The translations under genes and the position numbers were made by a program. From a virus (Duplodnaviria; Heunggongvirae; Uroviricota; Caudoviricetes): DNA of 7,908 nucleotides. The notes under the pieces were generated by a model, which saw only the letters and a program-made list of their open reading frames with translations, searched no databases and had not been told where the DNA came from. Positions 4,231 through 5,623 of the stretch are shown here, piece by piece (the stretch's first letter is position 1; each line of letters begins with the position of its first letter). Where the stretch lies: IMG/VR virus record IMGVR_UViG_2660238398_000003; one strand, written 5' to 3'.

Positions 4231-4615
4231 AAACGTCCCCGTTTAGCGCAGAAGTCACAGGAGTTGTTCAGGCTCCGGTGATACAATTATGGCGAATTGA
4301 TTATTCATAATCAAACAAGATAAGGTCTCAAACTTCATGCAAGCCAAGATTTATTTCTGACAGAATTATACAAAGAAGCTATTGGTCAGAATCTACTCGG
4401 ACTGTAAAACATACGCATAACCTTAAGCTCTCACTTTAAGCATTGTTGAAATAATAGCCGTCAAGTACAACCTTAACCACGACTGGGATATTTCCCTAGC
4501 TACCACGAGTTGTACTGCTATTAAACTGCCGTTAAATTCAGTAAGAGAATTTCATCCGATAAGTCAAGGCATGTAAAACATAAAAATTAACAAGATATTA
4601 TCATCTGCAACACTA

Positions 4616-5623
4616 TTGTATGGTATGTCAATGGCCATGTCGGTCGGGAGTTGTGCAACACCTGTCCAGACTAATTTTCCTGGTTACACCCCGGGTGCAG
4701 ATATCATTAGTGTTTCACCCACCAGAAACCAGGTCGATCTCATTGGTGATGTTGTTTATTCCCAGATAAAAGGAACTCGTTCTGTCAGACAGCTTCACAT
4801 GTCAGTTCTTGTCCCGCGAACAAATGATTTAAAACCAGCCATTATTTATTATCCCGGCGGCGGATTCATGTCTTCTGAACATGACAAATTTATTGAAATG
4901 AGAATGGCTCTGGCTGAAGCTGGTTTTGTTGTGGCCGCTGTAGAATACAGAACAATTCCTGATACATTTCCAGCACCAGTTGAGGATGGGAAAGCTGCAA
5001 TACGTTACTTGAGAGAACATGCCAGCGATTATGGGATTGATCCTCAAAGAATCGGAGTTCTGGGTGACTCTGCCGGTGGATGGCTTGCCCAGATGATGGG
5101 AACTACAAATGGTGACAAAACCTTTAATAAAGGTGACTTTCTTCAGCAATCAGCAGATGTTCAGGCAGTTGCCACACTTTATGGGATTTCTGACTTGTTG
5201 AATATTGGCGAGGGGTTCCCTGAATCAGTGCAGGAGGTTCATCGATCTCCTGCCGTAACCGAAGCCTTAATGATCAATGGCCCTGCATTCAGAAGTTTTG
5301 CGGGAGCCCCCATAACAGCGTCAAAAGAAAAAGCGCTAAACGCCAGTCCAATCGGACATATGAAAGGAGTAAAACCCCCATTTCTTATTATGCATGGTAG
5401 CAAAGACACTCTGGTTTCACCTGAGCAAAGCGCCAAACTATTCAGGATGTTGAAGAAGAACGGCGATAACGCTGAGTACGTTCTGGTAGAAGGGGCTGAG
5501 CATGGCGATAATACATGGTATCAGCCAATTATTATAAACAGAGTTGTTGAGTGGTTTACTAAAAACCTGGGAACCCCCATAAAAACCGCTACCCAACAAC
5601 AAAAAACAAACGCTGACCTGTAA
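4616..5623 (+). CDS. Alpha/beta-hydrolase-fold esterase/lipase (family IV / HSL-like motifs), probable cargo gene; start codon uncertain
   Basis: 335-aa ORF with an oxyanion-hole motif YYPGGGF, the nucleophile-elbow motif GDSAGG, and candidate Asp (HGSKD) and His (AEHGD) in canonical order. The ORF-track start is a TTG with no RBS. An in-frame ATG at 4571 is followed immediately by TAA at 4574-4576 (see findings). Confidence 0.8.
   Translation: MYGMSMAMSVGSCATPVQTNFPGYTPGADIISVSPTRNQVDLIGDVVYSQIKGTRSVRQLHMSVLVPRTNDLKPAIIYYPGGGFMSSEHDKFIEMRMALAEAGFVVAAVEYRTIPDTFPAPVEDGKAAIRYLREHASDYGIDPQRIGVLGDSAGGWLAQMMGTTNGDKTFNKGDFLQQSADVQAVATLYGISDLLNIGEGFPESVQEVHRSPAVTEALMINGPAFRSFAGAPITASKEKALNASPIGHMKGVKPPFLIMHGSKDTLVSPEQSAKLFRMLKKNGDNAEYVLVEGAEHGDNTWYQPIIINRVVEWFTKNLGTPIKTATQQQKTNADL

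Follow-up and report, generated by a model that had tools for sequence, protein, structure and literature searches.

Probable loss of the start codon of an exported esterase gene in a DLP12-type prophage of Escherichia coli

The window analyzed here is the whole 7,908-nucleotide stretch of the Caudoviricetes record IMGVR_UViG_2660238398_000003, which covers part of a DLP12-type defective lambdoid prophage of Escherichia coli, and our subject is the 5' end of a hydrolase gene on its plus strand. The complete reading frame of this gene (4580-5623, 347 codons plus the stop) encodes an esterase of the BD-FAE / alpha-beta hydrolase fold-3 family. Just upstream, an ATG at 4571-4573 is followed directly by a TAA at 4574-4576, in the same frame as the hydrolase open reading frame (ORF) that ends at 5623. 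Read on in frame past the TAA, the DNA gives Asn, then Ile in the place of the first residue of MKINKILSSATLLYGMSMAMSVGS, the remainder of that sequence and Cys, with the hydrolase after it; the Cys (codon 4652-4654) is at position 28 counted from ATG 4571, and a program-made ORF list opens the hydrolase at TTG 4616. An earlier note on this DNA had proposed that the TAA cuts off a lipoprotein signal peptide. The bases are as it described, with a stop at codon 2 of an ATG in the hydrolase frame and, beyond it, a basic n-region, a hydrophobic core and S-V-G-S before a Cys at about position 28. It overlooked the codon at 4580-4582, translated as I: this is ATA in the window, whereas 677 of the 682 complete E. 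coli genomes with the locus have ATG. Taking all the evidence together, we consider it very probable that the window carries a start-codon loss (ATG to ATA at 4580-4582) in an exported prophage esterase.

Of 5,426 complete E. coli genomes, 682 carry the hydrolase locus, with identities of 95-100% (mostly ~98%). Its alleles were counted with 55-mers that carried the variable base at the center, using megablast with an exact 28-mer requirement so that the matching allele alone could seed. The ATG-form 55-mer was found in 677 complete E. coli genomes and the ATA form in four, namely UPEC132, YP3, GN02350, and N50. NCBI's Prokaryotic Genome Annotation Pipeline (PGAP) places the start of the 347-aa coding sequence (CDS) at the equivalent of 4580 in ST-131, Eco-15, 20595, NRG 857C, KC-Dl-1, and ChlosBP-23-1, and the N-terminal part of the product reads MKINKILSS...SVGSC. 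In a 151-nt alignment (4520-4670) of six sequences, comprising the window, UPEC132, and four intact alleles, position 4582 was the sole column in which the window and UPEC132 (A) both differed from the four intact alleles (G); the other variable column, 4539, differed in the ST-131 strain alone, and the ATG-TAA-AAC ahead of 4580 was invariant. Over 4300-5700, the window differed from its nearest intact alleles (KC-Dl-1 and ChlosBP-23-1) at two positions, G to A at 4582 and C to T at 4676. The T at 4676 (plus strand) is a second private substitution linked to the ATA allele; it changes CTT to TTT (L33F), is thus non-synonymous, lies eight residues past the predicted cleavage site and is carried by at most five complete genomes. 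The four complete genomes with ATA were obtained from different hosts and projects and assembled independently, and they match the window exactly over 4300-5700, ATA included.

The annotation of these genomes follows from the changed codon. Because of the ATA at the start, PGAP calls a 330-aa protein without the signal (WP_001251751.1) in genomes identical to the window; its CDS is 4631-5623 on the plus strand, its N-terminus is MAMSVGSC, and in UPEC132 the pipeline falls back to ATG 4631 in this way. Truncated gene calls were found on public contigs, at 330 aa on 184 and at 332 aa on 72, and intact alleles on at least 1000 each, the number at which counting was capped. The intact 347-aa allele, annotated as "alpha/beta hydrolase" (WP_000700202.1, WP_000700204.1, and WP_001535299.1), is carried by strains including ST-131, NRG 857C, and KC-Dl-1 at the same DLP12-type locus, with ybcN upstream and ybcK or a variant downstream. 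These alleles are 98.3-99.9% identical to the window in DNA and have the same ATG-TAA leader, AAGG motif, signal peptide and catalytic residues, whereas the window has ATA for ATG (4582) and L33F (4676). No alternative in-frame canonical start that would keep the signal is available, because ATG 4571 runs into the TAA and the starts at 4616, 4625, 4631, and 4637 lie within or after the h-region. On this comparison of alleles, the lesion predicted to cut off the signal peptide is the ATG-to-ATA transition at 4582, three codons downstream of the TAA. The ATA allele is an ordinary point-mutation start-loss allele, which public genomes already contain with the annotation of a shorter protein.

The ribosome-binding signals are consistent with a start at 4580. 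A weak Shine-Dalgarno (SD)-like AAGG at 4566-4569 on the plus strand, which forms a duplex of about -3.2 to -3.5 kcal/mol with the 3' tail of 16S rRNA and is the same in all alleles aligned, lies ~9-10 nt from codon 4580 and just 0-1 nt from ATG 4571, and this spacing favors 4580 over 4571. SD complementarity was weak or absent at the internal candidate starts. The earlier note was right that TTG 4616 and ATG 4625 have no SD sequence (duplex energies of +2.2 and -2.1 kcal/mol, respectively, vs a window background mean of -1.8 kcal/mol), and a weak UGG-type match precedes ATG 4631 by 5 nt.

The coding region of the signal peptide extends over 4580-4654 on the plus strand and ends in a lipobox-like V-G-S-C (4643-4654). 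Once the ATG is restored, the N-terminus follows a PROSITE PS51257-style rule, with Cys25, a charge of +2, and a 19-residue uncharged run. In contrast, the products from 4616, 4625, 4631, and 4637 have no basic n-region and 12 or fewer residues ahead of the Cys, and all of them fall outside the full rule, which includes basic-residue and Cys-position conditions; the 330-aa protein starting at 4631 has just 7 residues before the Cys. The products from 4616 and 4625 therefore have no usable signal, as the earlier note had stated. The homologues do not start at 4616-4625: of the 120 listed, nearly all begin with an N-terminus that resembles a signal peptide, and the exceptions are short gene calls (317-332 aa). 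A Cys after the signal was seen in the E. coli clade and its nearest relatives only among these homologues, and the Cys codon TGT is kept in 681 of the 682 carrier genomes. Export of the intact product is well supported, and its status as a lipoprotein is predicted. In two cluster representatives, P0001 (residue 25) and P0004 (residue 24), Tyr replaces the signal-peptide Cys (TGT to TAT). A 55-mer with TAT at Cys25 matched no complete E. coli genome, and no recurrent pattern of signal loss was found in the complete genomes; the E. coli Tyr25 variant is a rare draft-genome variant or an error.

The TAA can be considered in its own right. If the gene started at ATG 4571, the TAA at codon 2 would be a recent nonsense mutation removing the signal peptide in this strain, as the earlier note favored. 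Part of that claim stands, since a real and conserved export signal has been lost to canonical initiation, but the cause lies at 4582 and the TAA is present in intact alleles as well. The ATG-TAA hexamer (4571-4576, plus strand) lies in the spacer between the SD-like motif and the start in the window as in each intact E. coli allele of the alignment, and a 55-mer with CAA at 4574-4576 together with the ATG start had no match in the complete E. coli genomes. The TAA is thus effectively fixed in E. coli carriers, 677 of which combine it with an intact 347-aa ORF beginning at the next ATG. The homologue of Escherichia sp. MOD1-EC7003 (96% amino acid identity) differs in this respect and reads AAGGC-ATG-CAA-AAC-ATG-AAA-ATT at the same spot (locus L012, 1992-2003), so that a single C/T difference separates its sense codon 2 from TAA. 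A homologue with 79% identity from a metagenome assembly (locus L011) has an open in-frame ATG three codons upstream (ATG-AAT-AAA-ATG-AAA), and locus L008 has no upstream ATG. The first two sequences show the nearest outgroups to have an open in-frame extension of three codons, which is the point in favor of a nonsense mutation. However, the window departs from its nearest intact relatives at 4582 and not at 4574, and the AAGG is too close to ATG 4571 to serve it well. At most, the TAA would reflect an older substitution, now fixed in E. coli, by which a dispensable extension of three codons was removed; it was plausibly from C to T, a direction that the outgroups weakly indicate. With the second ATG as the working start, such a change would do no harm, and we judge a recent nonsense mutation at this codon to be very unlikely. 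The only effect of the TAA in the window would be to keep ATG 4571 from substituting for the lost start, as the stop comes right after it; were the codon CAA, the ATG-to-ATA change would be a Met-to-Ile replacement within a longer leader. In MOD1-EC7003, the ORF stays open for 25 further codons upstream, up to a TTG.

The same hexamer might instead be a functional start-stop minimal ORF that tunes the esterase, with ribosomes loading at 4571, terminating, and then reinitiating at 4580 or occluding the main start. Its invariance in the aligned E. coli alleles, to which the CAA probe revealed no exception, and its position just 3 nt ahead of the main start would fit such a role, and operational start-stops that change host-gene expression by ~16% are known in E. 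coli (bioRxiv 10.1101/520783). The invariance is nevertheless uninformative because the locus is at least 95% (mostly ~98%) identical across E. coli carriers, and the stop is not kept in the nearest outgroups, which have CAA, AAT, or no upstream ATG at all. The AAGG, with its unfavorable spacing of 0-1 nt, is the sole SD-like element, so that a usable ribosome-binding site is lacking. ATGTAA is not enriched in the window (4 occurrences vs 6.7 +/- 2.5 in dinucleotide shuffles), and the predicted RNA fold of 4540-4640 was no more stable than that of shuffled sequences (z = +1.36). The start-stops described in E. coli by Meydan et al. (Ribo-RET, bioRxiv 10.1101/520783) were recognized from ribosome occupancy and are internal to genes and out of frame, whereas the ATG-TAA here has an unfavorable spacing to the SD-like motif and a sense codon in place of its stop in the nearest outgroup. 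A tuning role is therefore hard to credit, and the minimal upstream ORF that the earlier note had listed as an option finds no support; the presence of ATG-TAA in the 5' leader is most likely incidental. A related proposal is that the hexamer acts as a ribosome-loading element and that, in the ATA lineage, termination at TAA 4574 is followed by reinitiation on the adjacent AUA. This we consider extremely improbable. If true, lipoprotein synthesis would be regulated at a low level, and the ATA allele would be a tuned expression variant and not a dead gene.

A further alternative is that initiation at ATG 4625, 4631, or 4637 gives an active soluble esterase that has been kept for a new role in the cytoplasm. 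The rest of the ORF is intact, including Ser164, Asp276, and His308, the lineage persists on many contigs, PGAP accepts the 330-aa CDS, and ATG 4631 is preceded by the weak UGG-type match. On the other hand, a single further substitution separates the window from intact alleles over 1.4 kb, which makes the mutation look recent, and an intact ORF is then no sign of selection. Ribosome-binding signals at the internal sites are weak, and the family is exported, as nearly all homologues have a signal peptide. We accordingly regard a relocalized enzyme as unlikely, though less so than the readings of the hexamer above. The earlier note had also allowed for a sequencing error; the chance that sequencing or assembly produced a false A at 4582 or a false T at 4574 is negligible. 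The left 2.8 kb of the window does contain odd insertions absent from all related genomes, which could cast doubt on the quality of the source, but the window is identical to UPEC132 from 2811 to 7908, the ATA is common to the four independently assembled complete genomes, and the matching truncated protein occurs on 184 contigs.

Loss of the start codon at 4580-4582 accounts for these observations as follows. The true start would be this codon, served by the weak AAGG, and the intact product would open with a 24-residue signal peptide ending in V-G-S and followed by Cys25, making it a predicted lipoprotein or at least an exported protein. A single G-to-A change at 4582 in the lineage of the window turned the ATG into ATA and left no canonical start upstream of the hydrophobic core. 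Initiation at AUA would now yield just a small amount of the full-length prolipoprotein, and initiation at ATG 4625, 4631, or 4637 or at TTG 4616 would remove the n-region and most of the h-region, leaving the product in the cytoplasm. AUU start codons of infC and pcnB are natural near-cognate starts in E. coli. The unusual start of infC is conserved and regulatory, whereas the ATA here is a rare derived mutation found in 4 of the 682 carrier genomes. AUA initiation reaches ~1-2% of AUG initiation in E. coli reporters (bioRxiv 10.1101/063800), and here likewise an AUA at an otherwise normal initiation site could give ~1-2%. For the envelope enzyme, the ATA allele thus most likely acts as a null or a strong hypomorph, and a truncated cytoplasmic form is possible as a minor product.

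Several points weigh against this interpretation. The V-G-S-C does not conform to the strict [LVI][ASTVI][GAS]C pattern, having Gly at -2, and most of the wider family has AxA-type signals for signal peptidase I and not a lipobox. The start used in either allele is assigned from annotation, SD spacing, and homology, and the SD itself is weak (~-3 kcal/mol), within the top 20% of background positions. In addition, the ATA lineage is found on ~180-250 public contigs with the ORF otherwise intact, which would also fit a hypomorph that is tolerated, as opposed to a dead gene.

The biological significance of the start-codon loss is small, in that a prophage-borne esterase is probably no longer expressed in the envelope in one small B2 lineage, represented by UPEC132. 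If the enzyme matters for the release of hydroxycinnamates in the gut or urinary tract, the ATA lineage would be a natural knock-down. The finding has more value for annotation, because WP_001251751.1, a normal-looking 330-aa "alpha/beta hydrolase", masks a lost start and a missing export signal. It also shows that, where an ATG with an immediate stop is found by a signal-like sequence, orthologous starts should be compared before a nonsense mutation is called.

The assignment of the product to an esterase family rests on profile matches to Pfam PF20434 (BD-FAE; 151.4 bits, cut-off 26.8, E = 3e-44) and PF07859 (Abhydrolase_3; 81.5 bits, cut-off 25, E = 9e-23), and the matches in the Protein Data Bank (PDB) are esterases, lipases, and acetyl xylan esterases. 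No NCBIfam equivalog scored above its cut-off, and the protein is accordingly left without a more specific name. Ser164 (5069-5071, in GDSAG), Asp276 (5405-5407), and His308 (5501-5503), which we take from family knowledge to be the catalytic triad, are intact in the window and invariant in 24 homologues. The protein has in common with BD-FAE / hormone-sensitive-lipase-like fold-3 esterases, such as PDB 6nkf (Lip_vut4), the acetyl xylan esterase 6xyc, and a Dickeya "Ferulate esterase", a GGGF oxyanion-type motif, the GDSAG elbow, the Asp, and the His. It differs from the wider family, in which AxA-type signals predominate, by the Cys after the signal in the E. coli clade.

At loci L008 (1514-4047), L009 (43-1612), L010 (3-1575), and L011 (1315-2889), a phenolic acid decarboxylase gene (PF05870) immediately precedes the nearest homologues outside E. 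coli (74-79% identity). Only L008 has enough flanking sequence to show what lies further upstream, and there a LysR-family regulator gene is called. These neighbors fit a function in hydroxycinnamate release. In contrast, the E. coli copy stands alone in the prophage, and a tblastn search of window 4100-4700 with both decarboxylases detected no remnant upstream, so an origin of the TAA from an ancestral decarboxylase stop is not indicated. The arrangement suggests that the E. coli prophage copy was separated from an operon of a feruloyl esterase and a decarboxylase. The Dickeya relative is named "Ferulate esterase" by one source. Dickeya FaeD, possibly a different protein from the one listed, is a feruloyl esterase and a substrate of the type 2 secretion system (PMC9007343). 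Judging from family and gene context, the intact product is probably an exported feruloyl (hydroxycinnamoyl) or acetyl esterase acting outside the cytoplasm.

The genes in the window are arranged in the order essD, a porin gene (annotated as ompC in the matching record), quuD, ylcG, rusA, ybcO, ninE, ybcN, the hydrolase gene, and the ybcK serine recombinase gene, and emrE is the next gene just outside the window in the matching record. From 2811 to 7908 every base is identical to that of strain UPEC132, which belongs to phylogroup B2 (PMC11203468). The esterase gene, flanked by ybcN (ninB) on one side and the ybcK serine recombinase gene on the other, is a cargo gene of the DLP12-type defective prophage. 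We found no paper on this E. coli gene in the literature, where no search aimed at DLP12 was completed. The downstream flank varies: in the ST-131 strain (locus L002, 2761-3361), the C-terminus of the esterase is divergent, with 6 extra substitutions past residue 310, and a fragment of an Ig-like-domain pseudogene takes the place of ybcK, so the right-hand junction of the cargo gene varies among lineages. In MOD1-EC7003 (L012), an emrE-like SMR gene lies downstream of the esterase gene, and ybcK is absent there. A GC-rich, terminator-like hairpin at 5628-5649 (9 pairs, 6 of them G-C, followed by a T-run) was reported by the scan on the minus strand; on the plus strand it starts 5 nt past the esterase TAA, and it is likely a terminator between the convergent esterase and ybcK genes. 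A sigma-70 promoter scan of 4130-5980 gave no plus-strand site upstream of the esterase gene, and its total hits were at chance level.

The left part of the window has a peculiarity that is without bearing on the start-codon finding. Compared with the nearest relatives, which are otherwise ~99.9% identical, six short insertions absent from the closest genomes are present within 2.1 kb (383-444, 483-522, 1751-1795, 1854-1922, 2281-2323, and 2388-2430). Five of them are perfect tandem duplications (31, 22, 32, 19, and 19 nt), and the sixth comprises 40 nt of mostly duplicated sequence. The junction of the 22-nt duplication, the one tested, was found in none of the 5,426 complete E. coli genomes. 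The cluster is odd and could represent real private mutations, an assembly artefact, or edited sequence. Together with a 1-nt insertion at 2810, the insertions add 164 nt, and substitutions relative to the nearest relatives were found at 966, 975, and 2808. At 2808-2810, the window has A for the T of UPEC132 and the 1-nt insertion (C), which lie in a ylcG-family gene on the minus strand and cause a frameshift. The frameshifted genes are that for the porin, whose ORF ends at 1809 (304 aa vs 360), quuD, and ylcG.

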